Positions 3,610 to 64,000 of a stretch of 64,000 bases of DNA are shown in pieces. How positions within the stretch are numbered: the stretch's first letter is position 1; every line of letters starts with the position of its first letter. The notes under the pieces are model-generated. The model had not been told where the DNA came from, did no database searches, and worked only from the letters and a program-made list of their open reading frames with translations. This DNA is from an uncultured Candidatus Saccharibacteria bacterium (GTDB taxonomy: Bacteria > Patescibacteriota > Saccharimonadia > CAZHVB01): NCBI GenBank assembly GCA_964600295.1, contig CAZRIY010000001.1, positions 24,810 to 88,809 on the forward strand. Reading direction: 5' to 3'. The translations under genes were made by a program, and so were the position numbers.

Positions 3610-5271
3610 TTGGAAAATTTGCGGGTGGTGAACTATATTAACCATATGCCTATTGACCAGCGCGATCGCGAAGAAACGGTGGCCCGCCAACGGGCCAGTA
3701 TGCTCAAAGCTATATACACCGATGCCCGCCAAGTTCAGGATCTGGAATCGCTTAGTCAGATTATATCGCTTGATGATATGCAAAAACACCGAATCGTGCC
3801 TCTATTAATGACTTCTCATGATCTGGTACTTGGCTTTACCCAATCAACGCCCCGCCATAACATCAATCAAGTAAAGGCCAAGCTGTCTAGCTTTAATCTA
3901 AGGTTTAATTTGATATCGGATAGTGGTTATAAAGAACTCCTGGACCGCTATACAGCCCTTCTGAAGCCGCCTCGGCCCCCCGACCATAAACAACTGGCAG
4001 ATCGTCTGGCTAGAGCAGTTCTTGAGGCTAAACAAACCGCAGAGGACCCAGATCTTTTCACCAAAAAATTAGCCGATACCAGCCAAAAGGATCTAATCCA
4101 GCTGATCGCCCAGCAAGCCTACTTAATTAACTCGTCCGATATTCATATCGAACCAACGCGTGATGTCATCCGTCTCCGCTTCCGTATCGATGGGGTGTTG
4201 CATCAGGTGGCTACGCTGGCACCCGATCGATTTAACCTGTTGTTGTCGGTGCTCCAGATGCATAGTGGGATTCGTTGGAACGCCAACTATCCGCAGACTG
4301 GACATATGACCGCCGAGTTGGTTAATCACAACGGTGATGTCGGACCAGTCAATATGCGGGTGGAAACCACTCCCACTAACTATGGTAGTGATATTGTCAT
4401 CCGCATCTTTAATCTAGATGTCAGTTATCTCAATCTTGACCACATTGGTCTGAGCCAACGCCACCATCAGGCTATTGAAGAACTAATCAAACATCCCCAC
4501 GGGCTGGGCTTAATTACTGGACCTACCGGTTCGGGTAAAACTTCTACGCTCTATGCCATTTTAAATCGACTAAATACACCGGAAGTCAAAATCATTACTC
4601 TGGAGGATCCGATTGAATACGAGCTTGGCGGATTGACCCAGTTGGCGGTAGATTCTAATCAAGGCCAAAGTTTCGGTGAGCGTTTGCGGGCCGTGCTGCG
4701 CGAAGACCCCGACATTATCATGGTGGGCGAAATTCGCGATCCCGATACTGCTAAGACATCTTTACAATCAGCCTTGACTGGACACTTGGTACTTTCGACC
4801 TTCCACGCCAACTCGGCAGCTGGCGCGGTTAGCCGCTTGATGGACATGATTGGCGCCAATCCGATGGTGGCTTCGGCACTAAAATTAGTAATGACCCAAA
4901 GACTGCTGCGCAAACTTTGTGAACATTGTAAACAAGCCGATAAACCTGGCGAAAAAGAGCTTGAACAAATCAAAAATATCCTGGAAACGCTACCCGAAGG
5001 CCAGCGACCCGACCTAGAAAAAGCCCAGCTCTATAGGAGTAAAGGTTGTGATAAATGCTACCATATTGGCTACAAAGGCCGTTTGATGGTGGCTGAGCAA
5101 TTGATAATGAGCCCAGCCGTTGAGCAACTAATTGCTAGCTTCGCTAGCTCACAGCAAATCCATAGCCAGGCAGTCAAAGAAGGTATGATTACTATCCTCC
5201 AGGATGGCGTGCTCAAAGCCCTAGATGGCTTAACCACGCTCGAAGAAGTTTTTCGCGTCCTGGAAACGTAG
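3610..5271 (+). CDS. pilB: Type IV pilus / type II secretion assembly ATPase (PilB/GspE family)
   Basis: Has the T2SSE N-domain, a Walker A (GPTGSGKTST) and the GspE signature EDPIEY..., plus a C-terminal CxxC..CxxC. The start is TTG at 3610 or ATG at 3645. Confidence 0.85.
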   Translation: MENLRVVNYINHMPIDQRDREETVARQRASMLKAIYTDARQVQDLESLSQIISLDDMQKHRIVPLLMTSHDLVLGFTQSTPRHNINQVKAKLSSFNLRFNLISDSGYKELLDRYTALLKPPRPPDHKQLADRLARAVLEAKQTAEDPDLFTKKLADTSQKDLIQLIAQQAYLINSSDIHIEPTRDVIRLRFRIDGVLHQVATLAPDRFNLLLSVLQMHSGIRWNANYPQTGHMTAELVNHNGDVGPVNMRVETTPTNYGSDIVIRIFNLDVSYLNLDHIGLSQRHHQAIEELIKHPHGLGLITGPTGSGKTSTLYAILNRLNTPEVKIITLEDPIEYELGGLTQLAVDSNQGQSFGERLRAVLREDPDIIMVGEIRDPDTAKTSLQSALTGHLVLSTFHANSAAGAVSRLMDMIGANPMVASALKLVMTQRLLRKLCEHCKQADKPGEKELEQIKNILETLPEGQRPDLEKAQLYRSKGCDKCYHIGYKGRLMVAEQLIMSPAVEQLIASFASSQQIHSQAVKEGMITILQDGVLKALDGLTTLEEVFRVLET

Positions 5272-6146: not shown

Positions 6147-6185
6147 AAAAAATCCCTAGCACAGGATGTGCTCGGGATTTTTTGG
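6147..6185. terminator. Bidirectional intrinsic terminator-like hairpin
   Basis: ATCCCTAGCACA-GGA-TGTGCTCGGGAT stem flanked by an A-run on the 5' side and a T-run on the 3' side. Confidence 0.4.
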
Positions 6186-6607
6186 TGGAGCTGGGGGGTA
6201 TTGCACCCCCGTCCGCAAGCTAACAACCCACTCCTCTACAGGCATAGTCTGCTTGAAAGCATTTAAATCTTCACGCCTAATGTCTAAAAACAGACCAAAT
6301 AACAGTTGGCGCTAACCTTCTATATTCTCGATAAACTGCGAAGGTAACAATTTATCCAGCCGAAAATATGACACCGGGAATCCTCTATTCGGCGTTGAGG
6401 AACCGATGGCTGTATAACCCTTAGGCTACAGCTGGTGCAAACTGTTGAACGTTAAAAACGTTCGCTAGTTTTGCGAATATAGATTTGGCATCTATAAATG
6501 TCGAGCTTAATAACGCTCGGCTCAGAGCGACCTGCCAAGTAGATTGTAAAAGTACTTACGTCGAAGCTTGTCAGCCCCACAAAAAACTTTACCACATCTG
6601 TCAGCTT

Positions 6608-13754: not shown

Positions 13755-14123
13755 CGAGACTGCTGGATGATCGCTTCCGCCTTCGGGTGTGAGAGGAAAG
13801 TCCGGACAGCGTAGGGTAAGGACGGTCGCTAACGGCGACCGGGTGTGAGCCCAGGGAAAGTGCCACAGAGACTATACTAGCCCCGCCATCGGCGGGGCCA
13901 AAGGTGAAAAGTGTCGCCATAGGCGACTCCCGTGTTGGTGACAACACGTGGTGGTAAACCCCGTCCGCTGCAAGGTAGCTGGTTCATTATCTCGGAGCTA
14001 ATCTGGGAATTCTGGTACCCGCCAAGAACCGGCGATATAGAGCCGCACGAGCTCGCGCAGCAATGCGGAGCCAAGATAGATGATCATTCTTGACAGAATC
14101 CGGCTTACAGGCAGTCTCGAGCA
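13755..14123 (+). ncRNA. rnpB: RNase P RNA (bacterial type A)
   Basis: GAGGAAAGTCCGGAC P4 5' strand. ACAGAATCCGGCTTAC P4 3' strand. GGTAAACCCC...GCAAGG element. P1 pairing CGAGACTGC/GCAGTCTCG. Confidence 0.85.
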
Positions 14124-35313: not shown

Positions 35314-36405
35314 TTAACTCTCTTGAGGTGGGGTTTCTTCTTGGTTTTCGGGTTGTGGCAGTTTGATGTAGTCGCTGCTTTTTGACTGATCGAGTTGCTC
35401 TTCGAGGAAACTATTCATATCCTTGGCGTATTTAATCAAAATGTGAGAAACCTTGATCTCATTGTCCTTTTTTTCGGTAGCCTTGATAATGTGATAGCCG
35501 AAGCTGGTAGTCACAATCTCGGAAACCTGACCCAGTTCTAGCTTCAGGGCCGCGTCCTTGAACTCCTGCACAAATTGAGTTTCGGCCGATACAAACCCCA
35601 AATCACCGCCGTTGTCCTTACTGCCAGTATCTTGAGATGTCTCTTTGGCCAGCGAAGCGAAGTCTTCTCCAGCGCGAGCTCGGGACAACAGGCTTTCTGT
35701 TAGCTGTTTTTGCTCGCTACTGATATCTGGCAGTAATTTTTGCTCCAGCTTTTGAGTCAGCAACTGGAGACGATATTCGCGGCGGAAATCTTCCATATCC
35801 CACCCATAAAATTGCTCGATGGCGGTCATGAATTTATCCTCTCCACCTTGTTTCTTGATAATCTCGTCCATGGCTTGGTCCAGGTCGTTTCGGCTAACTG
35901 CAATATCGTATTTATCGGCTAGTTGTCGCATTAGCACTTTCATCTTGGCACGTCGCAGAGAGGATTGTTGTATTTCTAACAATAAGTTCCGATTGGCGGG
36001 CGAACTAAAATCAATTGGCTCTTGGCTACTGGCGGCCGGACCGGTGGGATGCTCATAGATATTTTTGCGATAACGGACTTCAAACAGGTAGTCGGAATAT
36101 TGAACGAAGTCGCCATTAACTTTGGCCATGGGATAAGGAATAATCTTTGATACGCCATAGACCAAGCTGTTATCTTCATGCCTGAGGTACACCAGCAGCG
36201 TAATTACGCAGATAAAAATCCCCAGGATCGAGATCAAAATCCCGGCTGTCAACTTTACAACTCGATGACGGGCTAAAGTCTGCGGCTTGACGTGTTTATA
36301 GCCTTGGTCTAGAACCTCTTGCCTTGTTTCATCTAAAGCGGCTTCGCCTTTGGCGGCTAAGCTTTTAGTAGACTTACTGGGGGTTTTGTTAGTCTTCTTG
36401 ACCAT
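35314..36405 (-). CDS. Membrane-anchored parvulin-type peptidyl-prolyl isomerase (PrsA/SurA-like foldase)
   Basis: N-terminal TM. PpiC domain (GGDLGFV...FGYHIIK). Confidence 0.7.
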   Translation of the reverse strand: MVKKTNKTPSKSTKSLAAKGEAALDETRQEVLDQGYKHVKPQTLARHRVVKLTAGILISILGIFICVITLLVYLRHEDNSLVYGVSKIIPYPMAKVNGDFVQYSDYLFEVRYRKNIYEHPTGPAASSQEPIDFSSPANRNLLLEIQQSSLRRAKMKVLMRQLADKYDIAVSRNDLDQAMDEIIKKQGGEDKFMTAIEQFYGWDMEDFRREYRLQLLTQKLEQKLLPDISSEQKQLTESLLSRARAGEDFASLAKETSQDTGSKDNGGDLGFVSAETQFVQEFKDAALKLELGQVSEIVTTSFGYHIIKATEKKDNEIKVSHILIKYAKDMNSFLEEQLDQSKSSDYIKLPQPENQEETPPQES

Positions 36406-36940
36406 GTTCCTCCTGATCCGTGCCAGTCAACTCGGCCGGACTACCTGATTTAACACTTCTCATCTGTTTGACCATTAATTGGTGCACCCGTTCTGGTTTG
36501 TGAATGTAGTTCAGCAGCAGGTCACCAACATACGTCTGAACCGTAATTGTACCATAGCCAAACATAGTCGCTTGCAAGCCCTTAATTTCATAATTTACGC
36601 TCTGGATCTTGTTATGGCTAATGTCCACCACCTTGCGGTTAAAAAAGCCTTTTTGAATGATCTGGATCAGTCGCTCGCTACTGATGATATACAGGCTGAA
36701 GTACCAACCTATCATGCGGTGGCCAAAGACTAGCAATGCCACCATAAAACCAATTAGTAGCCCCCACCAAGGCCAGCCGGACAGGGGCCAGATCGATAAC
36801 GGCACGGCGGATAGCGTCAGGACCACCAGGGAAGCAATTAGGCGGCGGCGCATAACAATCGGATGTTGGCGAAAAACCATTTCCACCGCTTCGCCCTCAT
36901 GCTGACCGGCAAATTCGTAGGTTTTAAGATCTTTGGTCAT
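36389..36940 (-). CDS. Bacterial PH-domain (YdbS/YdbT-like) membrane protein
   Basis: Two TM segments followed by a bPH_2-like domain. Confidence 0.5.
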   Translation of the reverse strand: MTKDLKTYEFAGQHEGEAVEMVFRQHPIVMRRRLIASLVVLTLSAVPLSIWPLSGWPWWGLLIGFMVALLVFGHRMIGWYFSLYIISSERLIQIIQKGFFNRKVVDISHNKIQSVNYEIKGLQATMFGYGTITVQTYVGDLLLNYIHKPERVHQLMVKQMRSVKSGSPAELTGTDQEEHGQED

Positions 36941-37178
36941 AAGTACTCCTTCAAGTATAGAAGTTATGGGTCCTGATTTCTAATTCTAAAGCGGCTATCG
37001 AGTAAACAAATCTCCGTTTCGAGCCGAGGACTGTCTGAGTGTGCTGTAGGCGGACGAGTTCCGCAAGCTAAGAGATTTGTTGAGAGAGCACATAGTGTTT
37101 GTGAGCTCTAGTCGAGAGCTTGGCGCCACCTTATCGGCACAAAGTGGCAAAAATTCTTTTGATAGACTGTAGAGATAC

Positions 37179-37254
37179 GCCCTGGTAGCTCAGCGGATAG
37201 AGCGCCTCCGTCCTAAGGAGGGCGTCGCAGGTTCGAATCCTGCCCAGGGCGCCA
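37179..37254 (+). tRNA. tRNA-Arg (anticodon CCT)
   Basis: Acceptor GCCCTGG/CCAGGGC; anticodon loop GTCCTAA; T-loop GGTTCGAATCC; CCA. Confidence 0.85.
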
Positions 37255-37397
37255 TGGTTCGACACGCTCACCATCGGTGAGGTTGGTGAACCATAATGAT
37301 TTGGATAGAACCGTCGAGCGAAGCGGAGGTTCGGTGTAGCGAACAGGCGCGCAGATTTTTATATCGAGCACCTGTAAGTGGAGAAGGCAAAGCCGCT

Positions 37398-37415
37398 ATC
37401 CTGCCCGGGGCGCCA
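37398..37415 (+). repeat. 18-nt direct repeat of the tRNA-Arg 3' end (att-like scar)
   Basis: ATCCTGCCCGGGGCGCCA matches ATCCTGCCCAGGGCGCCA (37237-37254) at 17 of 18 positions. A third GGCGCCACCTT copy is at 37122-37132. Confidence 0.45.
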
Positions 37416-37506
37416 CCTTGAATTTGAGACCTTTGTGCAGACTTCCTTATATATTTTCTAGTGTAGACAAGTTGATACTTAATATATCTATTTCTGATAA
37501 AGCGAC

Positions 37507-37764
37507 TTAATCATATAGCTGAGGGTGGGTACCAATGATATCAAATATGGCTTCATCGTTTCGCAGTAGATACAAAGCCCTATAATCGCCAGTGATGTCT
37601 ATGCTGCGATACTGTTTGTACTTGCCTTTGAGCTGGTGGTTTCTTAATTGGGAATCAAGTGGGTTGATGCTGAATAACCTGATCCTTTGAACGAGGCGGT
37701 TTCGCAGGGTTGGATCTAGTTTCTTTGATTGTTTGATGAAATGTTTGGAATAAGCAACCTTCAT
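37507..37764 (-). CDS. YafQ/RelE-family type II toxin
   Basis: ..GDYRALY..IIGTH, RelE/YafQ fold. Overlaps the antitoxin gene by 4 nt. Confidence 0.7.
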   Translation of the reverse strand: MKVAYSKHFIKQSKKLDPTLRNRLVQRIRLFSINPLDSQLRNHQLKGKYKQYRSIDITGDYRALYLLRNDEAIFDIIGTHPQLYD

Positions 37765-38042
37765 TCTAGTTCGGCAGCAAGAAAGTCCAAGGCTTTCTTG
37801 TTATTGTTGAACTTGTGGTAATGACCCTTATCAATTTCGGCTTGAGAGATTTGCATCAACTTCTGGGTCGCCTCGTTGGGAGCTTCAGGCAAATCAAAGA
37901 CAACGCTCTGCTCAGTGGCAAATCGGCGTAATTCATTATTTAAGACCGCACTAATACTCACCCCGAGCTTACTGGCAGTCTCCCTCGCTAACTTCTTAAG
38001 TTTGGGGTCAGTTTTTAAATTGATAACAGCATACTTGCTCAT
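37761..38042 (-). CDS. DinJ/RelB-family antitoxin
   Basis: MSKYAVINLKTDPKLKKLARETASKLGVSISAVLN.., DinJ-like. Confidence 0.7.
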   Translation of the reverse strand: MSKYAVINLKTDPKLKKLARETASKLGVSISAVLNNELRRFATEQSVVFDLPEAPNEATQKLMQISQAEIDKGHYHKFNNNKKALDFLAAELE

Positions 38043-38101
38043 ACCAAAAGTGTATACTTCTGCCTAAATGGTGTCAAAAACATCGTATCCTGATTCCAAG
38101 C

Positions 38102-38659
38102 TTAATCTGATCGGAAGCGCTGCCATTCGATAGCTTTACCGCGAGCCACATAGTCGGACATCACCAGCTCGTCGTAGATGCCGTCGATCAAGTCGTAATC
38201 CTTGGCCTCTTCCAGATTTACCCAGGCCGAATCTACAGTTTCACCCTGCTGCAGCCTTATCTTTCCACCCGCGTAATCGGCCAGGCATGAGATGACTAGG
38301 GTGGGGGCGCCATCTTCATGGATTCTGGCTAGGCTGGTAACATAGCGCACATTGGCTATTTTGAGACCAGATTCTTCGTCGACTTCCCTCGTTAAGGTTT
38401 TTTCCAGGACGTTGTACCAATAATCCTCGGTGTCTTTGGGCTGGTTGATAAAATCGCTAACCTCCAGCTTGCCACCCGGGACGGTCCAGCGGTTGGGGAA
38501 GCGTTTTTTATCCGGCGAACGTTGTAAAATTAAGTATTTATCGCCGCGGGCTACAATAGCGGTGGTGACAACTTCAAACTGGTCATTATCTTCAGGTTGC
38601 GCTATCACTTCTTGGGCTTTGGCTTTGGCTTTGGCTTTGGCTTTGGCTTTTGCTGCCAC
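38102..38659 (-). CDS. NUDIX hydrolase with an N-terminal (AK)n tract; GTG start
   Basis: Nudix box GGKLE...REVDEESGL. The N-terminus VAAKAKAKAKAKAKAQ is encoded by the hexanucleotide repeat. Confidence 0.7.
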   Translation of the reverse strand: MAAKAKAKAKAKAKAQEVIAQPEDNDQFEVVTTAIVARGDKYLILQRSPDKKRFPNRWTVPGGKLEVSDFINQPKDTEDYWYNVLEKTLTREVDEESGLKIANVRYVTSLARIHEDGAPTLVISCLADYAGGKIRLQQGETVDSAWVNLEEAKDYDLIDGIYDELVMSDYVARGKAIEWQRFRSD

Positions 38660-40085: not shown

Positions 40086-40439
40086 TTACAACTTTTTGCC
40101 CGTATTAATTATCATGCTCGATAGGATGTTCTTTAACTCATTCGCCTCTGTTTTAAGCCGATTGATTTCTAAGGCAACCTTCTGATTGGCAGCCTCCAAA
40201 AGTTCTAGCCAATGCATAACTTCCTTAGCTTCTTTACGAGCGATCTTCAGCCTATGTAGGAAGTCGTTCTTGCCGAGTGCATCATTGGCCTCTCGATAGT
40301 TGGCCCCAACGGAGCCGGCAGAACCTACCAGCTGAGAGATTAGACGACTATTAACAACATCTTTTGGCAGCTTCTTGCAGAAACGGACCACCTCAACGCC
40401 AAAGTCGGTACTTCGTTTCTCGAAGTCATAGCTAGCCAA
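40086..40439 (-). CDS. Four-helix-bundle protein (23S rRNA intervening-sequence protein family)
   Basis: About 117 aa, all alpha-helical, with the conserved GS.GANY.EA core. Confidence 0.7.
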   Translation of the reverse strand: MASYDFEKRSTDFGVEVVRFCKKLPKDVVNSRLISQLVGSAGSVGANYREANDALGKNDFLHRLKIARKEAKEVMHWLELLEAANQKVALEINRLKTEANELKNILSSMIINTGKKL

Positions 40440-41133: not shown

Positions 41134-44100
41134 CTAGCCCTGAACCTGATAATTGAATATCAGATCAATAGTAGCCGGTTCTTCCAGGTAGATGGTGAAG
41201 CCGGTGGCCGTGGCTTCAATGCGGTAGCGCGGCGCAAAACCGTTGGTGGGGCTAGCTACCACATTCGGCAGGTTGCTGTAGGCTCGAGCAAAGTCGAAAT
41301 GGACCGAGGTGGCCCCAGCCGGAATCGTCAGCTGACCGCGGGTGTCGTTGTTACCCACAGTATGACCCAGGACCTTGAGATCTTGCACAGTAGCCAGTCC
41401 GCTGACAGTCAGCGGGCCAGCCAGCGTAGTCGAACCAGTTACCTTAAGATCAGCCACAGTTGCCAAACCCGTCACTTTAAGATCCTTGGTGGTGGTGAGA
41501 TCGCTAACACTAAGAGATGTAAAGTTGCCGTCGGTCGATTGGGGACTGGTTTGGGCGGGCTGCACGTTATTGGCATTCGAGAGGGTAAACCAACCTGGGT
41601 TAACAAATACCTCAATTGTGCCAGTACCGCCTGCGCTGTATGCCTGTAAAGCCACGCCAACGATTCGGCCAGATGCAGTAGCTTTCATACCAACCCCAGC
41701 TAGTGACGAAGCCGTGATCGGATCGCCCACCGCGATGCTACCACCCTCTGTTGAAACTTTAGTGGGTACCCGACCGATTAGGGCAATTGGATAACCGCCG
41801 TCGCCGCTCCCTAAAACTTGGTGAGGCTGAGTAGACACAATGCCAATAGCACTGGCTTGATAAGCATTGGTAGTCTTAACGACTGAGCTATTGCCACTGG
41901 TTGCCACCAGCTCGCCCGGATGGAGATTTTCATTTGAGGTGTAATTTTCAGCAATATCCGCTCCGTTGGCCGTACAAGTACCAGCCGTCACAATCCCGCC
42001 CTTAACCGCTATGCCATTGAGGGTTTCTCCCGCCGCGCAAGTGGCGGTTATACCCGAAGTACCGCCGTTGCGATAAACGCCTGTTGCATTAATATCGCCA
42101 GTTACATCCAGCGCATAGGCTGGCGCCGAGGCCGTACCGATTGCTAAGCTACCAGCTGAATCAAAGTGGCTAAGTACGGTTCCGGATGAATTTTGCAGCT
42201 GCAGCAGATCAGCGGCCTGCGAAGCTATGCCTCTTATACGGATACCTACATCGTTGACACCTACGCTAGTTACTCGGAGAGTGGCACTAGCATCTATTGC
42301 GTTTGTGCCAGCGGTTAAACGTAAGTTGTTAACCGAATTTCCAGCTACCTGAAAATTATCATCAGTCTTCAAGCTATCAACAGCCGACCGATAGAGGTTG
42401 GTGTCGCCGCCAAAATTAATCCCACCACCTGCGCTAGTGGATGCAACGAAGTTCAGTTTTGCATTACTCGTAACTCCACTACCAATACCCAGATTAGAGT
42501 CGGTAACTAAAAAGCTGGCAGCCGACCGGTAGAGGTTCGTGTCGTTATCGGCCGCTCCGGTGCCGCCAAAGTAGAGTTTGCCTGAACCTTCGATACGGGT
42601 ATCGCCGGCTACATCAAGCTTGAAATCTGGACTGGTGGTACCGATACCGACGTTTCCATTCGATTTAACCGTCAATGTAACATTGGGCGTGAATAATGCG
42701 TCTGCAGTGGTGGCACCTGTCCCGCCGATAAATCTAATGTCTCCTGCCGCACCTGGATAGCTCGCAACCATACCCGAGTAGCCAATTGATGCGTGGGTAA
42801 TGGTGTATCTAAATACTCCACCAGCATCTACATAAAAGTTTGAACCAAATCCGCCTGAGCCGCTATCGGCCCCCGATGTAGTCGCCCAAGAACCGGTAGT
42901 TAGTCTTCTATTGTTCCCGCTCAATATCGCATTTCCTGCAACGTCTAGGCTTGCGCTAGGTGCGGTAGTACCAACACCGACGCGACCATCACCCCTAACC
43001 GTTAGAGCATTGTTAACGTAGCTAGCGCCATAATTGATTGATAACAGGTCATAGCCAGTGCCAGTAGCTCCACTGCCGATCCAGACAATATCGTCGTTTT
43101 GCGTGCCGGAAGGCGCCTCAAAGCGGGCAATTACTGCATTGGCAGCACCATTCTCAACGTGCAATCTGGCCGATGGGACTGTTTCGCCGATGCCGACGTT
43201 GCCGTCGTTGCGAACATAGAGTTTTGAACTATCGGCAGAGTCAGTTACATTCAAGGCCGCAGCTGTATTATCCGCAGTACTGCCCTTTACTACTAGCCTG
43301 GCCGAGGTGGGAGAGGTATTGCCGATGCCCAAATTCCCAGAACCCAGTATCGTCAGTCTTTCGTCTGGAGTTCCCCCACCATTAAAGGTATAAAGGGCCG
43401 TTCTTATTGGTGAACGTCCAGCTACTAAAATATTTTGACCAGATTGTTGCAATGCCAAGGAAGTTACATCATCGTAATTCGCCATCAGATCTACCCTATA
43501 TGATGTAGGGTTATCTGCAGCGGATAATCTTAATTTTGCCCCACCGGCAGCAACAGAACGCTGCAAATGCAATAACACTGACGGATCTGTAGTCCCGATG
43601 CCGACGCTTCCTGCAGGCGTAATGTTTACAACATCGCTTCCACCGACGGTGACCCGAAGATTACCTTCGCTAGTACCATTGGTTTCTTGGATGCCAAAGG
43701 CCCAGTCACGAGCCGTTGTGGTTTCGGCTGCTGTGGATTGGATGTGGAGACTCGTTGGTCCCAGGTAAAGATCGCGCCAACGAGCAGGGGCTGAGCCAAG
43801 ATCGTAGGTATCATCGACTCCGGGCAAGATGTGGCCGGTGACCGTCAGGTTGCCCGTTATGTTCTGACCACCGTTGACAGTAAGAGCACCCCCAACAATG
43901 AAGTTATCGTCGGTTTTGAGAGTATTAGCAGCCGAGCGGTAGAGGTTGGTATCACCCGACGAGTTAGCGTCAAAGATGATTCCCGCAGGACCAACGACGC
44001 CAAAGTCCGATGCATGGAATGAATCGTCGGTCTTGAGAAGGCTAGCACTTGCTCGGTAGAGGTTAGTATCTAAAGCATTGGTGCCGTCTCCCCATTGCAG

Positions 44101-47100
44101 AGTTCCGCCAGCCTGCGCTAGCCATCGAGGAAGAGCATCGCCCGAGACTATGGTAGATAGACCGGTAGCTGCGCTGGTGCTTCTATTGACCCGGAGTTGA
44201 TCATCGGTCTGCAGTAAATCTGCTCCTGCGCGATAAAGATTTGTGTCAATCGTAGTACCATTACCCCATTCCAAAGTACCACCAGATAGAACTCTTAAAC
44301 GCGCAGCTGTATCGCCAATGAGTTTTATGTGTTGGGCCCAGTCACCAGCCGCACTGTTGGTAATATTAACGTAGCTAGCACTGGAGTCTGTCTGAAGTCT
44401 GATTTCTTCGCCAGCTGCATTTGAAACTCGTAGATCATCATCATTTCCCAAGGAAAGCGTGTCAGCAGCGCTGCGGTAAAGATTGGTATCGCCAGCAGAT
44501 CCAAAAAGAATCGTGGGTGATCCCGAAGGTCCAGTCGTTCCGATCCCAACTTGACCTGCTCCAATAGATGCATAGATAGGCTGGCTTGACCAGAATTCAT
44601 CATCAGTACGCAGATTGTTAGCTGCATTGCGGTAGAGATTAGTATCGCCGCCGATCAAAAGACCGCCACTCCCACCCGGGACTGATAGTTGAAGTTGGCC
44701 AGCACCCGAAAGTGTCATAGGGTTGCTAGCATCAGCGAACTGCCACCGGTGGGCCCCACCAGTCGGAGCCCAATAGCGCATAGCAAGCCCTTCACTAGAC
44801 AGACCATAGCCGCTGTCTCCAATCTGGACTGTTGGAACCGTATTAGAATAATTTCCAGAGGAGAGTAATACGGTTGAATTGTTTCGTAGAGTACCATTTA
44901 TATCCAGTTTATAGGTGGGTCCAGTAGTCCCAATCCCAACGTTGCCAACACCATCAATCCGCATTCTTTCGCTATTACCTCCTATAGCAGTTGTGGTGAA
45001 GAACTTCAGCAACCCTTGGTAGTCATCGGCCGTCGCCGACCCCTTAGCCCCCTGAATAGTAGCGAATGAATAAGGGTTAGCGGTATTACCACTCTCACCG
45101 GCAAAACGAAGCGATGGACCAATGTCTACCGCAGCAGCAGTATTGGAAACAAGGGTGACTGCGGAGGTGTCGAAGTTAGCGTTCGGACTGGTACCGACGC
45201 TAATTACTTGTAGTTTGCTTGTCGGCCCTATAGTGCCGATCCCAACATTGCCACTAGATAGAACTGTAATGTGCTGAGATCCGCTACCGTTAGCTCCCAG
45301 ATAAATAGGTCCCGTATTAGAATTCATGTACAGGTTGTGCCCAGAAGCAGATTGGTAAATATTTGCGGCTTGTGCACCAGAGAAGTACAGCTCAAAACCT
45401 GAACCATTTCCGATGTTCAGGGTGCCAGATACATCAGAGGTTGCAATGGAGGCGACTGCGCCCACTCTAAGGTTACCCGAAGATGCCACACAACCTGTAT
45501 CGCTAGCTTCGATGCAAACTCCACCGCCGACTACGTGGAGCCTTGAATCTGGCCCAGTGGTACCGACTCCGACATTGCCACTTGATGCACTTATGGCTAG
45601 AGGAACAGTTCCCGAGAATCCTGAACCTATACCGATCTTAAAGGTATCAAGATCGGCTCCTTGGGCGCCTATGGTCCAGCGGGCTACGCTAGAGTTCTCT
45701 ATAAGCCGAAGGCCGACTTCGTCGGGAGTCGCCGTTTCGGTGCCTATATCGGTATAAGCATCAGCGCCAGCGCCGCCATTATTAAGTAACTGGCCCACTA
45801 CAGAGCCGCTGCTACGTACGTCTAGCGTACGAGCCGGCCCAGTAGTCCCAATCCCCACATTGCCACTAGGCGTGATGTTTACGACATCACTTCCTCCGAC
45901 AGTAACTCTAAGGTTACCTTCGCTGACGCCATCGGTTTCTTGGATGCCAAAGGCCCAGTCCCGAGCGGTGGTGGTTTCGGCGGCTGTGGATTGCAGGTGT
46001 AAGCTGGTTGGTCCAAGGTAAAGATCTCGCCAGCGGGCAGAGGCTGAGCCGAGGTCATAAGTATCATCGGCTCCCGGGAGAATGTGCCCGGTAACGCTCA
46101 AGTTACCGCCCGAGGTTATGCCACCGTCTGCGTAGAAATTACCATCAACCTCCAGGTCGCCCTCTATGAACAAATCATCATCCGAAGCCAGACCATGGCT
46201 GGTGGCTCCGCCCGAATCCGAAATCGCGTTGTAGGCTAGGCCAGTTACCCCACCAATGTTCAGAGTATCCGTATCTGCAAGATAAACTTGTCCGCCCGCT
46301 GGATTTACCGTTAAATCTGCATCCGACGTAATATCGTCTCCATTGACAGTTAAGTCTCCCGTAATCGTAACGTCACCTGTAGTACCGACCGTTACAGCAG
46401 TTAAGACATCGGATTCATTGCGGATTGAGAAACTACCGCCGGGATCGGAACGCAATCGCCAATTTTTAGCAGCAGTATTATTTAGCCCCAAGAAGACCCC
46501 TGGGCTACTTCCCTGTGAAGCTGTTACCGACACTGAGCGTGCAGCGAAATCGGCATCGGCGCCGGACGGAGTTATGGTTAGATCGCCAACATTATCAGTT
46601 CTAAAATCTGTGTAATTAGTGCTGTCCGTATGGGTTAATCGCAACTGGGGATTGGTGGTATCAAGCACCTCGAATTTACGATCCGGGCCTATGGTGTTTA
46701 TGCCCACATTGCCGGTATTTAAGACTGTTAGTCTTTCTTGGAATGCTGACGTGTCAGACGACGAGATTGCCAAGCGGCCCGCTGGTGCCGCACCCTCTGC
46801 ACCCCGTACCTGCCTGAGGGCGCCACCTACGTAGGAGTCTGCGCTAGATGGTGTTAGTAGCAATTCGGCAAACGAACTATTGTTTGTGGTATCACTGTTT
46901 TCGATACGTGCGCCTACGCCGCCCCCAACATTACTGGCCTGTACTTCCAGTTTTTGTGATGGCGAGGTCGTGCCGATACCGAGATTACCAAAACTGTTTA
47001 GGCGCATGCCTTCAACTTGGTCATTACCGCTACCGTACCCAAAAACCAAATCTCCAGGCGCGGTTGAGGCAGTACGATCATGGAAGACCGCCCCTATAGT

Positions 47101-49779
47101 TGGGCCCTTACGAAGAGTGCCGCCAGTGTCATATGTCAGGAAGCCTAGGAGTGCGAGATTGTTGTTTGTGATGTCGCTATTGACTATTTGAGCATAGCGA
47201 TTGGCGGCCGAAGTATATGTAGTAAGAGTGTTGGCCTTTTCAACATGTAGAAGTGCTCCGGGACCTGTGGTACCGATGCCAACGTTGCCACTAGCATCGA
47301 CTACGAACGGGGTTGAATCGGTAAAAGTGCCATCGTCGTTGACACGGAAGGCAGCCGCAGTGCCGGCTTGAGTGATCTCGAAGGTGGTATCGGTAGTAGT
47401 ATCGGTTAGTGTAATCTCAATATCCCGGCCGTCAGAAGTAGCAATGGTATTACCATTGGCATAGGCGTTTTGTAGCGTTACTGAGGGGTCAGAACCGCCA
47501 GAACCGGAACAGGTCGAGAGTTGATTGGAACCGTTGCGGCAGACCGAGGTAGAGCCGGCGGCACCGAGGGTGGTCACCGCCAGAGTACCGGTAAAGTTGG
47601 CAGCGGAAGTGATAGTTTGACCATTGATCGTACCAGAAACCAGCAGATTATCTTGGATATCCACCGTGCCACCAGCATTGACGATTAAAGTGGCGGCAGT
47701 ACTAGTAATATCTCCACCGTTGACGGCCAGATCGCCCGAACCGGCCGCGCAGGCGGTATCACTAGATTCGATACAAACTCCCCCACCAACCACGTGAAGC
47801 TTGGAATCCGGTCCTGCCGTACCGATACCGACGTTGCCGCCATCTTTAACAGCGAGAACGGTGTTGGTACCATCCTGCAAAGTTAAGATATCGCCAGTGC
47901 CATCTTGACGAACATTGAGAGCGGTTTTGTCAAACAGCGCATTATCAGCCCAAAAGATGCCCAGGGCACTTGTTGAGGTTGTTGTGTTGTTCGAATAAGC
48001 GCGAAATACCTGATCGGTTGAAATAGTGCCGTCGATTTCTAATAAAGCGCTGGGGCTATCCAGCCCGTCACCAATGACCACTCGACCGTCGGTATTGATA
48101 CGCATATGTTCGGTGCCACTAGTTTCAAATCCAAGGTCAAAACTATCATTTGTACCGAGCATAGCTACTTCGCCAAAGGAATTGCCGCCCTGGACAAAGG
48201 CTACGCCACTGCCGCTGGTGAAACCGCAGGATGCTGCACCCTGCAGGCAGACTGTACCGCTTTCGTTGGGTAAGGCGTAAGCCCGATTATCTGTTAATGT
48301 TGTGGTCTGTACAGCGCCGGTGAAACCGGAGTTGGTTAGATTTAAGAGGGGTGTGGTTACTGAGGTGCCGAAGGTGGGGTTAGCCACCGTCGCCACCGCA
48401 ATATTACCGTTGGCTCCCCCATCGCTGAGCAACAGGTTAGCACCGGCCGTTAACACCCGCTCGTTGGTTAAACTGGGATTAAGACTGAGGGTAACGTAAT
48501 CGGCACCGGCTGGGGCTGAACCGCCTCCGCCGATGCAGTTGCCAAAATTGGTACAGAAGTCGTAAACCCCAGCGGGATGGGCCGGTACCCGGTAGGTGGC
48601 ATCAGCTACCGGTGGAATGAAGGCTAAGGTGCTGGTAAAGCCACCGCTGGTGGCGGTGAGAGTGGTGGAAGCGTTGCCTTGGAGGGTTAGGGCTTGGTCG
48701 CTGGCACCGATGGTTAAGTCGGCGGTGGGGGTTAGAGTATTAGCGTAAAGAATATCGCCGACTGTTAGGCTGGCCTGGAAAGTATTATTACCGCTGAAGA
48801 CTTGGTCGGCGCGGTCGAGCAGGGCGACGTTGGGGGTCAGACGGGCATCGGCCAGGGTGCCGTGGCTGATGCTGCTGGCATTGAGGTTGGTAATACCAGC
48901 GCCGTCGCCAGCAATAGTAGTAGCACTCAGAGCCTGGAGGTTGGTATTGCCCTGGACGGTTAGATCACCTTCCAGCAAGGAATCCCCATGGACTAGCAGG
49001 CTGCCAAATTCTCCCTCTCCAGAGGTAGTTACGCTGTCAGAACTAAAATCATTAACCGTGACATCACCGAGGTTGCTGGTGCCGGTGACCTCGAGGTTGT
49101 TGATGGTGGCCAGACCGCTGACGTTGAGATCGATGAAATTAGCCAGCCGTCCATCCACTTGATCAACTTTGAGGTTGTTAATCTCAGCCTGATCTTTCAG
49201 ACCAGCCAGGCGGGCTTCAAGCTCGGCTTGCTGCTGTTTCTGGCGCTGGGCCAATTGATTAAGCTTGGTAACTGTACCGAAGATTAGCCAAGCTAATAGG
49301 CCGGCCGATAGCAGAATCAGTAGGATAAGCCAGAGGTGGCGCTTGCGGCTGGGTTCCGGCTCGTCATTGGTTGATTCCCCTGGAGGTTCTGGGGGTGGAG
49401 GCGACGGCTGAGGAATTATTGGCGGTTCTTCCACCATGGGATGGAATACGGGGGGTTGTCCAGTAGTAGAACTTGGATAAGCTACGCTTTGGTCTAGAGA
49501 TCCAACTTCACTACTGGATTGGACGGGCGCAGGTGTAAGCGGCGGAGTTGGGGAGGGCTCTGGAATGGGCTGGCTAGGAACAGTTGGCGGAGGGGTTTCC
49601 GGGGAAGTGGCAGATTGAGCCAGAGGTACTGCTGGAAATTGCGAATTTGTAGGCGGTGAGGGCTGATAAGTTTGGGGAACTGGCGGTAATTGAACCGGAG
49701 CTTCTCGAAAACCGGCAGATGCCCCTCCAATAGTTGAAGGGGCACCGTGAATTTGGCCGAAGATGTTTGTTTCAGTCAT
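41134..49779 (-). CDS. Giant (2881 aa) membrane-anchored repetitive surface fibre protein, tail-fibre-like
   Basis: Pro-rich N-terminus (~150 aa), one TM (HLWLILLILLSAGLLAWLIFG), a coiled coil, then at least 13 GNVGIGTTxPxxKLxV modules. Duplicated ..GHILPGADDTYDLGSAxxRWRDLYLGPTSLH.. units. C-terminal ~110-aa lectin-like domain shared with the next gene. Confidence 0.8.
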   Translation of the reverse strand: MTETNIFGQIHGAPSTIGGASAGFREAPVQLPPVPQTYQPSPPTNSQFPAVPLAQSATSPETPPPTVPSQPIPEPSPTPPLTPAPVQSSSEVGSLDQSVAYPSSTTGQPPVFHPMVEEPPIIPQPSPPPPEPPGESTNDEPEPSRKRHLWLILLILLSAGLLAWLIFGTVTKLNQLAQRQKQQQAELEARLAGLKDQAEINNLKVDQVDGRLANFIDLNVSGLATINNLEVTGTSNLGDVTVNDFSSDSVTTSGEGEFGSLLVHGDSLLEGDLTVQGNTNLQALSATTIAGDGAGITNLNASSISHGTLADARLTPNVALLDRADQVFSGNNTFQASLTVGDILYANTLTPTADLTIGASDQALTLQGNASTTLTATSGGFTSTLAFIPPVADATYRVPAHPAGVYDFCTNFGNCIGGGGSAPAGADYVTLSLNPSLTNERVLTAGANLLLSDGGANGNIAVATVANPTFGTSVTTPLLNLTNSGFTGAVQTTTLTDNRAYALPNESGTVCLQGAASCGFTSGSGVAFVQGGNSFGEVAMLGTNDSFDLGFETSGTEHMRINTDGRVVIGDGLDSPSALLEIDGTISTDQVFRAYSNNTTTSTSALGIFWADNALFDKTALNVRQDGTGDILTLQDGTNTVLAVKDGGNVGIGTAGPDSKLHVVGGGVCIESSDTACAAGSGDLAVNGGDITSTAATLIVNAGGTVDIQDNLLVSGTINGQTITSAANFTGTLAVTTLGAAGSTSVCRNGSNQLSTCSGSGGSDPSVTLQNAYANGNTIATSDGRDIEITLTDTTTDTTFEITQAGTAAAFRVNDDGTFTDSTPFVVDASGNVGIGTTGPGALLHVEKANTLTTYTSAANRYAQIVNSDITNNNLALLGFLTYDTGGTLRKGPTIGAVFHDRTASTAPGDLVFGYGSGNDQVEGMRLNSFGNLGIGTTSPSQKLEVQASNVGGGVGARIENSDTTNNSSFAELLLTPSSADSYVGGALRQVRGAEGAAPAGRLAISSSDTSAFQERLTVLNTGNVGINTIGPDRKFEVLDTTNPQLRLTHTDSTNYTDFRTDNVGDLTITPSGADADFAARSVSVTASQGSSPGVFLGLNNTAAKNWRLRSDPGGSFSIRNESDVLTAVTVGTTGDVTITGDLTVNGDDITSDADLTVNPAGGQVYLADTDTLNIGGVTGLAYNAISDSGGATSHGLASDDDLFIEGDLEVDGNFYADGGITSGGNLSVTGHILPGADDTYDLGSASARWRDLYLGPTSLHLQSTAAETTTARDWAFGIQETDGVSEGNLRVTVGGSDVVNITPSGNVGIGTTGPARTLDVRSSGSVVGQLLNNGGAGADAYTDIGTETATPDEVGLRLIENSSVARWTIGAQGADLDTFKIGIGSGFSGTVPLAISASSGNVGVGTTGPDSRLHVVGGGVCIEASDTGCVASSGNLRVGAVASIATSDVSGTLNIGNGSGFELYFSGAQAANIYQSASGHNLYMNSNTGPIYLGANGSGSQHITVLSSGNVGIGTIGPTSKLQVISVGTSPNANFDTSAVTLVSNTAAAVDIGPSLRFAGESGNTANPYSFATIQGAKGSATADDYQGLLKFFTTTAIGGNSERMRIDGVGNVGIGTTGPTYKLDINGTLRNNSTVLLSSGNYSNTVPTVQIGDSGYGLSSEGLAMRYWAPTGGAHRWQFADASNPMTLSGAGQLQLSVPGGSGGLLIGGDTNLYRNAANNLRTDDEFWSSQPIYASIGAGQVGIGTTGPSGSPTILFGSAGDTNLYRSAADTLSLGNDDDLRVSNAAGEEIRLQTDSSASYVNITNSAAGDWAQHIKLIGDTAARLRVLSGGTLEWGNGTTIDTNLYRAGADLLQTDDQLRVNRSTSAATGLSTIVSGDALPRWLAQAGGTLQWGDGTNALDTNLYRASASLLKTDDSFHASDFGVVGPAGIIFDANSSGDTNLYRSAANTLKTDDNFIVGGALTVNGGQNITGNLTVTGHILPGVDDTYDLGSAPARWRDLYLGPTSLHIQSTAAETTTARDWAFGIQETNGTSEGNLRVTVGGSDVVNITPAGSVGIGTTDPSVLLHLQRSVAAGGAKLRLSAADNPTSYRVDLMANYDDVTSLALQQSGQNILVAGRSPIRTALYTFNGGGTPDERLTILGSGNLGIGNTSPTSARLVVKGSTADNTAAALNVTDSADSSKLYVRNDGNVGIGETVPSARLHVENGAANAVIARFEAPSGTQNDDIVWIGSGATGTGYDLLSINYGASYVNNALTVRGDGRVGVGTTAPSASLDVAGNAILSGNNRRLTTGSWATTSGADSGSGGFGSNFYVDAGGVFRYTITHASIGYSGMVASYPGAAGDIRFIGGTGATTADALFTPNVTLTVKSNGNVGIGTTSPDFKLDVAGDTRIEGSGKLYFGGTGAADNDTNLYRSAASFLVTDSNLGIGSGVTSNAKLNFVASTSAGGGINFGGDTNLYRSAVDSLKTDDNFQVAGNSVNNLRLTAGTNAIDASATLRVTSVGVNDVGIRIRGIASQAADLLQLQNSSGTVLSHFDSAGSLAIGTASAPAYALDVTGDINATGVYRNGGTSGITATCAAGETLNGIAVKGGIVTAGTCTANGADIAENYTSNENLHPGELVATSGNSSVVKTTNAYQASAIGIVSTQPHQVLGSGDGGYPIALIGRVPTKVSTEGGSIAVGDPITASSLAGVGMKATASGRIVGVALQAYSAGGTGTIEVFVNPGWFTLSNANNVQPAQTSPQSTDGNFTSLSVSDLTTTKDLKVTGLATVADLKVTGSTTLAGPLTVSGLATVQDLKVLGHTVGNNDTRGQLTIPAGATSVHFDFARAYSNLPNVVASPTNGFAPRYRIEATATGFTIYLEEPATIDLIFNYQVQG
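48370..49140. repeat. About 0.75-kb segment ~98% identical to 60777-61547 (direct repeat between the two giant genes)
   Basis: Identical antisense ORF peptides appear in the ORF track at 48830 and 61063. One 60-nt comparison (48841-48900 against 61248-61307) shows a single mismatch. Confidence 0.7.
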
Positions 49780-63414: not shown

Positions 63415-63688
63415 ATGATGTTCAAATATGTTTACGTTCTTCGTTCAGAATCCAACGGTTATCTGTATATCGGTAAGACTTCAGATCTGAAGCGACGCTA
63501 TATTGAACATCAAAAAGGTATAAGTGGGTTCACCAAGAAGTTCGCCCCCTGGAAGTTAATCTATTACGAAGCCCATACGGATGCAAAAGATGCTGCAAGG
63601 CGTGAAGGATATCTAAAGACTACTCTCGGTAATCGGGCACTTAAGCGTATGCTTCGCAATAGATTGAATCGGAGGTCTACTACCTGAT
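63415..63688 (+). CDS. GIY-YIG nuclease family protein
   Basis: YVYVLRS...GYLYIGKTSDLKRRYIEH GIY-YIG motif. 90 aa. Confidence 0.75.
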
Positions 63689-64000
63689 GCAGATCAATAC
63701 TCTCCTACTTGATTGGCTGGAACACTTGGAAATCGAGCAAAACCGCTCCCAGCGGACAATCACCAATTATCATCACTATTTGCAACGGTTCGTCGAATTC
63801 TCCGGTGATATAGCGGTAACTAAGATTGATTCGGAACTTATACGGCGTTGGCGGTTATGGCTCAACCGCTTGGCCGATGACACCGGCCGCCCCCTGGGTA
63901 AAGCCACCCAAAACTACCATCTGATAGCCTTGAGGTCATTCCTCCGCTATCTGGCCAAGCGTGATATTGACAGTTTAGCTTCAGATAAGATAGAGCTGGC
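63687..64000 (+). CDS. Tyrosine recombinase (XerC/XerD/phage-integrase family), N-terminal SAM-like domain; partial, continues past the window end
   Basis: ..WLEHLEIEQNRSQRTITNYHHYLQRFVEF.....LRSFLRYL.. matches the integrase N-terminal core-binding domain. The ATGA overlaps the GIY-YIG gene. Confidence 0.7.
   Translation, partial: MQINTLLLDWLEHLEIEQNRSQRTITNYHHYLQRFVEFSGDIAVTKIDSELIRRWRLWLNRLADDTGRPLGKATQNYHLIALRSFLRYLAKRDIDSLASDKIEL

Follow-up and report, generated by a model that had tools for sequence, protein, structure and literature searches.

A hairpin-rich module behind tRNA-Arg(CCT) and tRNA-Asp(GTC) genes of Patescibacteria: a possible junction of small tRNA-targeted cassettes

How did an intact tRNA-Arg(CCT) gene come to be followed by a second copy of its own 3′ end? 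The question is raised by a stretch of 64,000 nucleotides from an uncultured Candidatus Saccharibacteria bacterium (GenBank assembly GCA_964600295.1, contig CAZRIY010000001.1, positions 24,810 to 88,809), which is called the window throughout and within which all positions are given. A first-pass annotation of the sequence had taken the repeat, together with a toxin-antitoxin (TA) pair that follows it, for the remains of a decayed integrative element. Direct repetition of a tRNA 3′ end is a classic sign of integration, and a tRNA gene with an att-like repeat and a TA pair alone would be routine. What is not routine is a module of constant size and conserved structure that is common to two tRNA genes and to many genome-reduced, largely uncultured lineages. 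The unit of interest at this locus is that conserved module of ~160 bp, not a decayed island.

The repeated tRNA end and the DNA between its copies

The final 18 nt of the tRNA gene, ATCCTGCCCAGGGCGCCA (37237–37254), recur at 37398–37415 with one mismatch, 161 nt from start to start, just as the first-pass annotation had reported. The copy spans the end of the T loop, the 3′ strand of the T stem, the 3′ strand of the acceptor stem, the discriminator and the CCA, and its single G variant is the acceptor allele of the tRNAs in L014 and L015 (L-numbers denote loci fetched from related genomes). That annotation had also suggested a search for the 18-mer elsewhere. Allowing up to three mismatches, the 64-kb window holds only these two matches, against 0.04 expected, and none of 100 shuffles reached two. 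The features of the tRNA gene and of the DNA behind it are as follows.

37179–37254, plus strand: tRNA-Arg(CCT), intact, CCA encoded (ARAGORN; Rfam tRNA, 62 bits)
37255–37293, plus strand: hairpin directly 3′ of the tRNA (TGGTTC...GAACCA), terminator-like without a U tract (fold)
37294–37397, plus strand: conserved module body, U (nhmmer, E 1.6e-14; covariance model R1, described below)
37303–37312, plus strand: inverted T-arm-like motif GGATAGAACC, within the body
37308–37332, plus strand: hairpin P2, within the body
37343–37375, plus strand: hairpin P3 with an internal loop that looks K-turn-like, within the body
37378–37396, plus strand: hairpin P4, within the body
37398–37415, plus strand: copy of the tRNA 3′ end, 18 nt, one mismatch (A to G)

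Positions 37255–37415 thus hold one copy of the module, which consists of the post-tRNA hairpin, a multi-hairpin body of ~105 bp and the tRNA-end copy. The DNA between the two tRNA ends is 143 nt long and folds into several hairpins; its only open reading frame (ORF) is a mechanically listed one of 41 aa, in keeping with the first-pass description of hairpins without a gene. The minimum free energy of this spacer taken alone is not significant (z-score −1.4). A terminator scan called none at 37255–37293, and the homologous positions are true intrinsic terminators in L022, L075, L017, L067 and L069.

Recurrence behind tRNA-Arg and tRNA-Asp genes

Each distinct tRNA-Arg(CCT) locus was scanned for its own 3′ 18-mer, and matches of at least 14/18 were counted, 12/18 being the background level (about one such match per 5–10 kb). 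Eight lineages carry a copy of their own tRNA end on the same strand, 114–154 nt downstream: L015 and L025 with 18/18, the window with 17/18, L018 with 16, L022, L043 and L075 with 15, and L017 with 14. The decay of the copies is therefore graded, from 18/18 to 14/18, and scar-like. The scan found nothing comparable upstream of these genes, and on the opposite strand only an inverted copy in L022 (15/18, offset 35). The same layout lies 3′ of 6 of the 32 distinct tRNA-Asp(GTC) genes, at offsets of 119–181, and behind none of 14 tRNA-Gly(CCC) and none of 16 tRNA-Thr(CGT) genes. Searches with an nhmmer profile and with the covariance model placed the module only 3′ of tRNA-Arg or tRNA-Asp genes or within the arrays described below, and always on the strand of the tRNA.

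The order of elements in the spacer is shared: post-tRNA hairpin, inverted T-arm-like motif, P2, P3, P4 and tRNA-end copy. Among the carriers the post-tRNA hairpin is usually an intrinsic terminator. The inverted T-arm-like motif reads GGATTCGAACC in several loci where the window has GGATAGAACC. P2 is closed by GAACC/GGTTC, and its 3′ strand copies the 5′ strand of the T stem plus the TTCG of the adjoining tRNA. P3 keeps an asymmetric internal loop, with a two-pair GC stem and a 3-nt RCA bulge facing GA on the opposite strand, and it is this loop that by eye looks like a K-turn. The sequence AAGGCAAAGCCGCTATCC is identical in the window and in the tRNA-Asp locus L067, divergence beginning at the tRNA-specific part; the Arg-type and Asp-type bodies are plainly homologous. 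What changes with the tRNA are the copies of its T stem and acceptor end; the rest of the body is common to both types. The spacer in the window, which the first-pass annotation had read as part of a decayed element, is instead one member of a conserved, structured family.

Conservation of the hairpins was assessed with a 10-sequence alignment and a hand-drawn P2/P3 structure. The cells of P2 and P3 were paired in 83.9% of cases against 67.7% in shuffles, 0 of 500 of which reached 83.9%; the structure was drawn from the same sequences, which inflates the comparison somewhat. Slid controls gave 25–44%, and thirteen of the 18 pairs change on both sides. A covariance model built from the same alignment (R1) gives one significant match in the window, at 37292–37405 (80.3 bits, E 8e-24), and recovers copies from outside its training set in L069 (two), L059, L054, L067 and L075. 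A strict descriptor of P3, run over both strands of 1.29 Mb, matched only the window, L015 and L022/L023, in each case inside the module and with no false positives, and the stems that it matched differ in sequence (ACAGG/CCTGT, GCTCG/CGAGC and ACCCA/TGGGT). Unguided RNAalifold on MAFFT alignments was unsuccessful.

In several relatives the module stands at the junctions of arrays. In L069 a tRNA-Asp gene is followed by three modules, separated by cassettes of a promoter and an ORF, and each cassette ends in an element, here called x, that consists of a pseudo T-arm hairpin and the final 9 nt of the tRNA, then a terminator. The proteins encoded by the L069 cassettes (277 aa and 200 aa) have no match in Pfam. 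L054 and L067 have two modules in tandem, the second tRNA-end copy of L054 being interrupted by a 38-nt hairpin. In L083 the module is followed by several small ORFs, one of them with an x-like end after it. The window itself has a single module and no array, the array-like layouts being those of L069, L054 and L083.

A possible trace of such an element lies on the other side of the tRNA gene in the window.

37103–37132, plus strand: upstream partial copy; hairpin 37103–37121 (6-bp stem, 7-nt loop), then GGCGCCA+CCTT at 37122–37132

The first-pass annotation had noted a third, partial copy of the tRNA end about 50 bp upstream of the gene. An 11-mer, GGCGCCACCTT, is indeed exact at 37122–37132 and at 37409–37419, the upstream occurrence stopping 46 nt 5′ of the tRNA, but on statistics alone it is weak (5 matches against 1.3 expected at one mismatch). 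Its final CCTT is the flank of the downstream repeat and not that of the tRNA. The hairpin followed by GGCGCCA resembles x, and from its sequence 37103–37132 may be a pseudo T arm with the remains of a tRNA end, comparable to the x elements in L069 and L083. On the 5′ side of this element is a long hairpin closed by AAACAAATCTC/GAGATTTGTT (36995–37100), which has no match to the module model; the intergenic region that contains it (36941–37178) folds no more stably than its shuffles (z = −0.05). A 12-mer immediately ahead of the NUDIX stop codon in the window, TTCCAAGCTTAA (38094–38105), is also the sequence 5′ of GGCCCGCCA in the x-like element of L083 (~4970–4990); this sharing may be due to chance, since the 12-mer contains the AAGCTT palindrome.

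Cassette junction, RNA gene or decayed island

We favour, with moderate confidence, the explanation that small non-autonomous cassettes integrate at tRNA 3′ ends and that the module is their att-bearing junction. It would be either the junction left by a miniature non-autonomous integrative cassette or the whole of one; the 3′ part of the tRNA gene would be the partner of that cassette in site-specific recombination. On integration the tRNA would receive a new 3′ end, with a terminator, from the incoming DNA, and the older end would be moved downstream; this would account for the direct repeat. The body with its hairpins would serve as the accessory (arm) region of the attachment site, its T-arm-like sequences matching the target tRNA. 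It may work folded or single-stranded, like the attC sites of integrons, and the recombinase would come in trans. What is observed is that the module recurs, that it is homologous behind two types of tRNA, that its hairpins covary, that it stands at cassette junctions in arrays and that a close relative has the site empty; the manner of recombination, the place of the crossover, a role at the DNA level and mobilisation in trans are points that we infer.

The alleles of the tRNA-end copies speak to this. The L043 copy is the end of the L066 tRNA (17/17), the L017 copy carries the T stem of L067, and the f2 and f3 copies of L069 are of the L054/L024 allele. Where a copy carries the allele of a sister lineage and not that of the resident tRNA, this is as predicted if incoming DNA displaced an older 3′ end. 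A terminator of its own follows each 3′-end copy in L022, L025, L054 and L067, as expected if the copy was once a true gene end. Repeated integration at the site, which the first-pass annotation had proposed, is borne out by tandem or repeated insertion in the relatives; in the window itself the repeats enclose only 143 bp.

Other observations concern the tRNA genes as targets. L108 (1897–2118), L046 (4750–4940) and L041 (1930–2101) each have an old tRNA-Arg(CCT) gene divided, close to the anticodon loop, by ~110–150 bp of inserted DNA in which there is a whole tRNA-Arg(CCT) gene of another allele. L108 retains both old halves and L041 the old 5′ half, and a perfect 9-nt inverted repeat, TCCAGCACC/GGTGCTGGA, surrounds the new gene in L046. 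These split genes mark the locus as a repeated target of insertion, at both of the classical tRNA sublocations. On a rough tree of loci L011–L094 the orientation of tRNA-Arg(CCT) beside the gene for bPH (a bacterial PH-domain membrane protein) flips repeatedly, even between sister lineages (for example L018/L041, L064/L065 and L039/L055). In L054 (6800–9884) the orientation of tRNA-Asp is opposite to that in the usual divergent Asp/Thr-Gly cluster, and ~3 kb, with two modules within, lie between it and tRNA-Thr. A break between Logan contigs within the tRNA is probably a branching of the assembly graph at the conserved tRNA and not a polymorphism.

Several points weigh against the cassette junction. 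No recombinase gene was found in or beside any module. In the gap of the window that holds the module, the ORF list and Pfam returned the TA pair only, with neither an integrase nor a remnant of one, and no IntI-type integrase or attI was seen in the loci read. The window does contain the N-terminal 112 aa of an Xer-like tyrosine recombinase (63681–63998, running off the end of the window). This fragment is 57% identical to a gene that lies 0.6–3 kb from tRNA-Arg in L013, L014, L028 and L106; the syntenic Xer-like gene is the only tyrosine recombinase found, and in the window it is ~26 kb from the module. Of the integrase-mediated insertion at the tRNA that the first-pass annotation had envisaged, the att-like duplicate from T loop to CCA stands, and an integrase and a cargo between the repeats do not. 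No pair of occupied and empty sites with alignable flanks was found for the module alone: the flanks of L017 (occupied) and L067 (empty) have no homology that we could find, and the empty site in L011, described below, concerns the whole 847-bp gap and not the module alone. Nor was a free or viral form found. Four scans of viral contigs, with a 25-mer of the tRNA 3′ end and three module motifs, returned no module, and two modules compared with phage records by BLAST had no counterpart there; 11 viral-contig matches to a 17-mer lay in coding DNA and were put down to chance. The crossover point is ambiguous, and could be in the T loop, to judge from the 18–21-nt identity, or at the extreme 3′ end, to judge from the x elements. 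A circle of ~160 bp would also, to our knowledge, be very small for any known integrative element. Finally, covarying hairpins fit a structured RNA as well as they fit a folded DNA site.

This last point leads to the main rival explanation, which we consider rather unlikely: the body and the tRNA-end copy would form a structured small RNA gene derived from the 3′ part of a tRNA. Three or four hairpins and a K-turn-like loop would make up such an RNA, together with a tRNA-like CCA end that would serve processing, stability or mimicry; its transcription would either read through from the tRNA or start at a weak promoter of its own. The strong covariation of P2 and P3 and the conservation, by eye, of the K-turn-like loop are as this explanation would have them, and so are the constant strand of the module, the terminators after the unit in L022 and L025, and a 5′ part that in L022 and L043 pairs with the copy of acceptor and T stem in the manner of a minihelix. 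Against it, G-U and A-C pairs are equally frequent in the 13 best copies (11 against 13), so that there is no excess of G-U. A strong terminator stands 5′ of the body in L022, L075, L017, L067 and L069, no convincing promoter was seen, and in the arrays the body has a terminator before it and the next promoter after it. The tRNA-like end decays freely (in L018 the CCA has become TTA), and the register of the closing helix is not conserved. The distribution is patchy, the two closest relatives lacking the module, and in Rfam the tRNA alone was matched (at E ≤10 in the window region and E ≤1 in seven loci). The equal frequency of G-U and A-C, the position of the body between terminator and promoter and the free decay of the end together favour a role as DNA, none of them being decisive. 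A pseudo-tRNA, or a second tRNA with an intron, was rejected, as most copies are without an acceptor or anticodon arm. PBS-like sequences, T-box, Y RNA, retron, IS200/605 PATE, IS110 bridge RNA and casposon target-site duplications were considered briefly and provisionally set aside, the defining protein or motif of each being absent here.

The explanation of the first-pass annotation, that a large tRNA-integrated island or prophage has decayed and left its att repeats and a TA addiction module, turns on the gap that holds these features and on the TA pair.

36389–36940, minus strand: bPH, the left-hand syntenic anchor (Pfam)
37507–37764, minus strand: YafQ/RelE-family toxin, 85 aa (PF15738 YafQ_toxin, 36.5 bits against a cutoff of 30, 6e-9)
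37761–38042, minus strand: RelB/DinJ-family antitoxin, 93 aa (PF04221 RelB, 30.5 bits against a cutoff of 22.4, 3e-7)
38077–38049, minus strand: promoter of the TA operon, TTGACA-17-TACACT, near-consensus
38102–38659, minus strand: NUDIX gene, the right-hand edge of the variable gap (Pfam)

By Pfam, PPIase and bPH form the left flank and NUDIX, NDK and UppP the right. Homologues are attributed by their sources to Candidatus Microgenomates or Saccharibacteria, which places the organism in the Patescibacteria. The order UppP-NDK-NUDIX-gap-bPH-PPIase is maintained in relatives, and in 69 related loci among those fetched tRNA-Arg(CCT) adjoins bPH, in either orientation. The first-pass annotation had proposed to ask whether the site is empty or occupied in related genomes. 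In the closest relative, L011 (bPH 81% identical), the gap between tRNA and NUDIX is empty: the CCA of the tRNA, which like that of L012 differs from the window's by 1–2 nt, is 1 nt from the NUDIX stop codon. The 847 bp at 37255–38101 of the window are thus an insertion relative to the state of L011. In L012 (78%) the gap contains a terminator, ~290 bp of unrelated DNA and a TA pair, with no repeat; a relic of the module was sought there, and no significant similarity was found. In L013 and L014 the tRNA is oppositely oriented and the small ORFs are others.

The TA pair itself was correctly recognised as DinJ/YafQ type II, both proteins scoring above their Pfam cutoffs. Its gene order, sizes, 4-nt overlap of antitoxin and toxin genes, Pfam membership and promoter of its own are those of other type II RelB/DinJ-YafQ/RelE modules, and nothing in it is unusual, a mobile unit of ~0.6 kb occurring across Saccharibacteria-type genomes. 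The toxin has 185 homologues, many of them 65–81% identical and several named by source as Candidatus Saccharibacteria. The three nearest homologous pairs (L109, L111 and L112; toxin 76–81% identical) have unrelated neighbour genes, with no tRNA within 4 kb of the TA pair and no copy of the module. Homology at the DNA level is confined to the region from the promoter through the toxin stop codon (~38080–37507 in the window), and the promoter is kept in the alignment with the TA modules of three other genomes. The TA pair in the repeat-free gap of L012 is a different one, its antitoxin only 33% identical to that of the window. On these comparisons the TA pair is an independent compact mobile unit (promoter, antitoxin and toxin, ~0.6 kb) that landed in the same permissive gap as the module, with the promoter at 38049–38077 as its outer edge.

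A decayed island is improbable to us, and more so than an RNA gene. The empty site in L011, the TA pairs in the same gap of the window and of L012, and the 3′-end repeats as such would all agree with it. However, the repeats enclose 143 bp and leave out the TA pair, which lies beyond both of them on the strand opposite the tRNA and so cannot be the last cargo of an element that they bounded. The proposed link between repeat and TA pair fails as well, since the homologous pairs elsewhere have neither tRNA nor repeat and their homology ends at their own promoter and stop codon. Random decay in independent lineages cannot yield the homologous, structured spacer of the same size that is found in 14 lineages. 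There is no remnant of an integrase, and a putative third, decayed repeat adjoining the NUDIX stop (38087–38101; 12/18 in L012) was rejected, such matches being at the background level. Chance, or a mere local duplication, can safely be dismissed as the source of the repeat, for although the sequence is G+C-rich and the 11-mer only weakly significant, the 18-mer occurs in the window far in excess of expectation, a repeat of the tRNA end is found at the same offset in 14 tRNA loci and a conserved body lies between the copies.

Some further observations on the window are recorded here. The ORFs of NDK and NUDIX overlap by 55 nt (38605–38659) in a tandem hexamer repeat, (CTTTGG)n, which encodes (KP)n at the C-terminus of NDK and (AK)n at the listed N-terminus of NUDIX (GTG start); the actual start of NUDIX may be further in than the listed GTG. 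A solitary gene of the 23S rRNA intervening-sequence protein family (PF05635, 69 bits) lies beside UppP at 40086–40439. Between UppP and the region that in relatives holds the Xer-like gene is a minus-strand ORF of 2881 aa (41134–49779), a repetitive protein with a proline-rich, low-complexity N-terminus. A search of the genome contigs with PPIase gave distant rotamase domains only, among the matches listed. The bacterial nature of the genome is confirmed by a tmRNA (6183–6578, 112 bits) and an RNase P RNA of bacterial class A (13755–14123, 231 bits) in the window.

Relation to known systems

If the module is a recombination site, it would show where and how these minimal genomes acquire and shuffle accessory genes, and its covariance model would be a searchable marker for their variable regions; in some lineages the module punctuates arrays of small unknown genes. 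If it is an RNA, it would represent a new tRNA-derived RNA family. Either reading accounts for partial tRNA matches that confuse annotation. A broader suggestion, which we offer tentatively and hold less firmly than the cassette junction itself, is that Patescibacteria have an undescribed tRNA-anchored cassette system. Its junction would be the ~105-bp multi-hairpin body, with T-arm-like segments re-matched to tRNA-Arg(CCT) or tRNA-Asp(GTC). The system would resemble an integron but lack the integron integrase, and might work through folded single-stranded sites with an Xer-type recombinase of the host. Small-ORF cassettes with promoters, and empty cassettes, would accumulate at the tRNA 3′ end.

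Group I introns in the tRNA-Asp and tRNA-Asn genes of Patescibacteria lie in the anticodon loop at position 35/36 and are self-splicing (PMC13011429). They share with the module that a structured non-coding element is tied to tRNA genes, tRNA-Asp included, in the same phylum. Here, in contrast, the tRNA is intact, the element is downstream of it and there is no Intron_gpI match. Cis-mobilisable elements (CIMEs) are att-flanked, kilobase-long deletion derivatives of integrative and conjugative elements. CIME accretion likewise involves a non-autonomous stretch of DNA that has att copies at its ends and lies at a tRNA-type site, and tandem accretion is expected; the module differs in its conserved size and structure and in having no known parent element.

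Tycheposons of Prochlorococcus are tRNA-targeted elements with tandem partial tRNAs (bioRxiv 10.1101/2020.12.28.424599). Like these and other tRNA-targeted islands, the present locus has a repeat of the tRNA 3′ end 3′ of an intact tRNA and an empty site in a relative, and there is tandem build-up in which newer insertions displace older ones outward, with partial tRNAs scattered in the variable region. Unlike them, it has no integrase and no replication genes, its unit is only ~160 bp, a covarying multi-hairpin body abuts every repeat, one body serves two tRNAs, and the cassettes of the arrays are single small ORFs.

The other close likeness is to integrons and attC arrays, including attC clusters without an integrase. 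In the array-like layouts of the relatives, as in these systems, cassettes of small, mostly unannotated ORFs lie between elements that resemble recombination sites, the structure of the junction is conserved more than its sequence, TA modules occur in or near the array region, and non-coding junction elements can stand without an integrase nearby. The arrays described here differ in that no IntI was found and the anchor is the 3′ end of a tRNA gene, not attI/intI, that the junction holds copies of tRNA segments, and that the cassettes have their own promoters and terminators.

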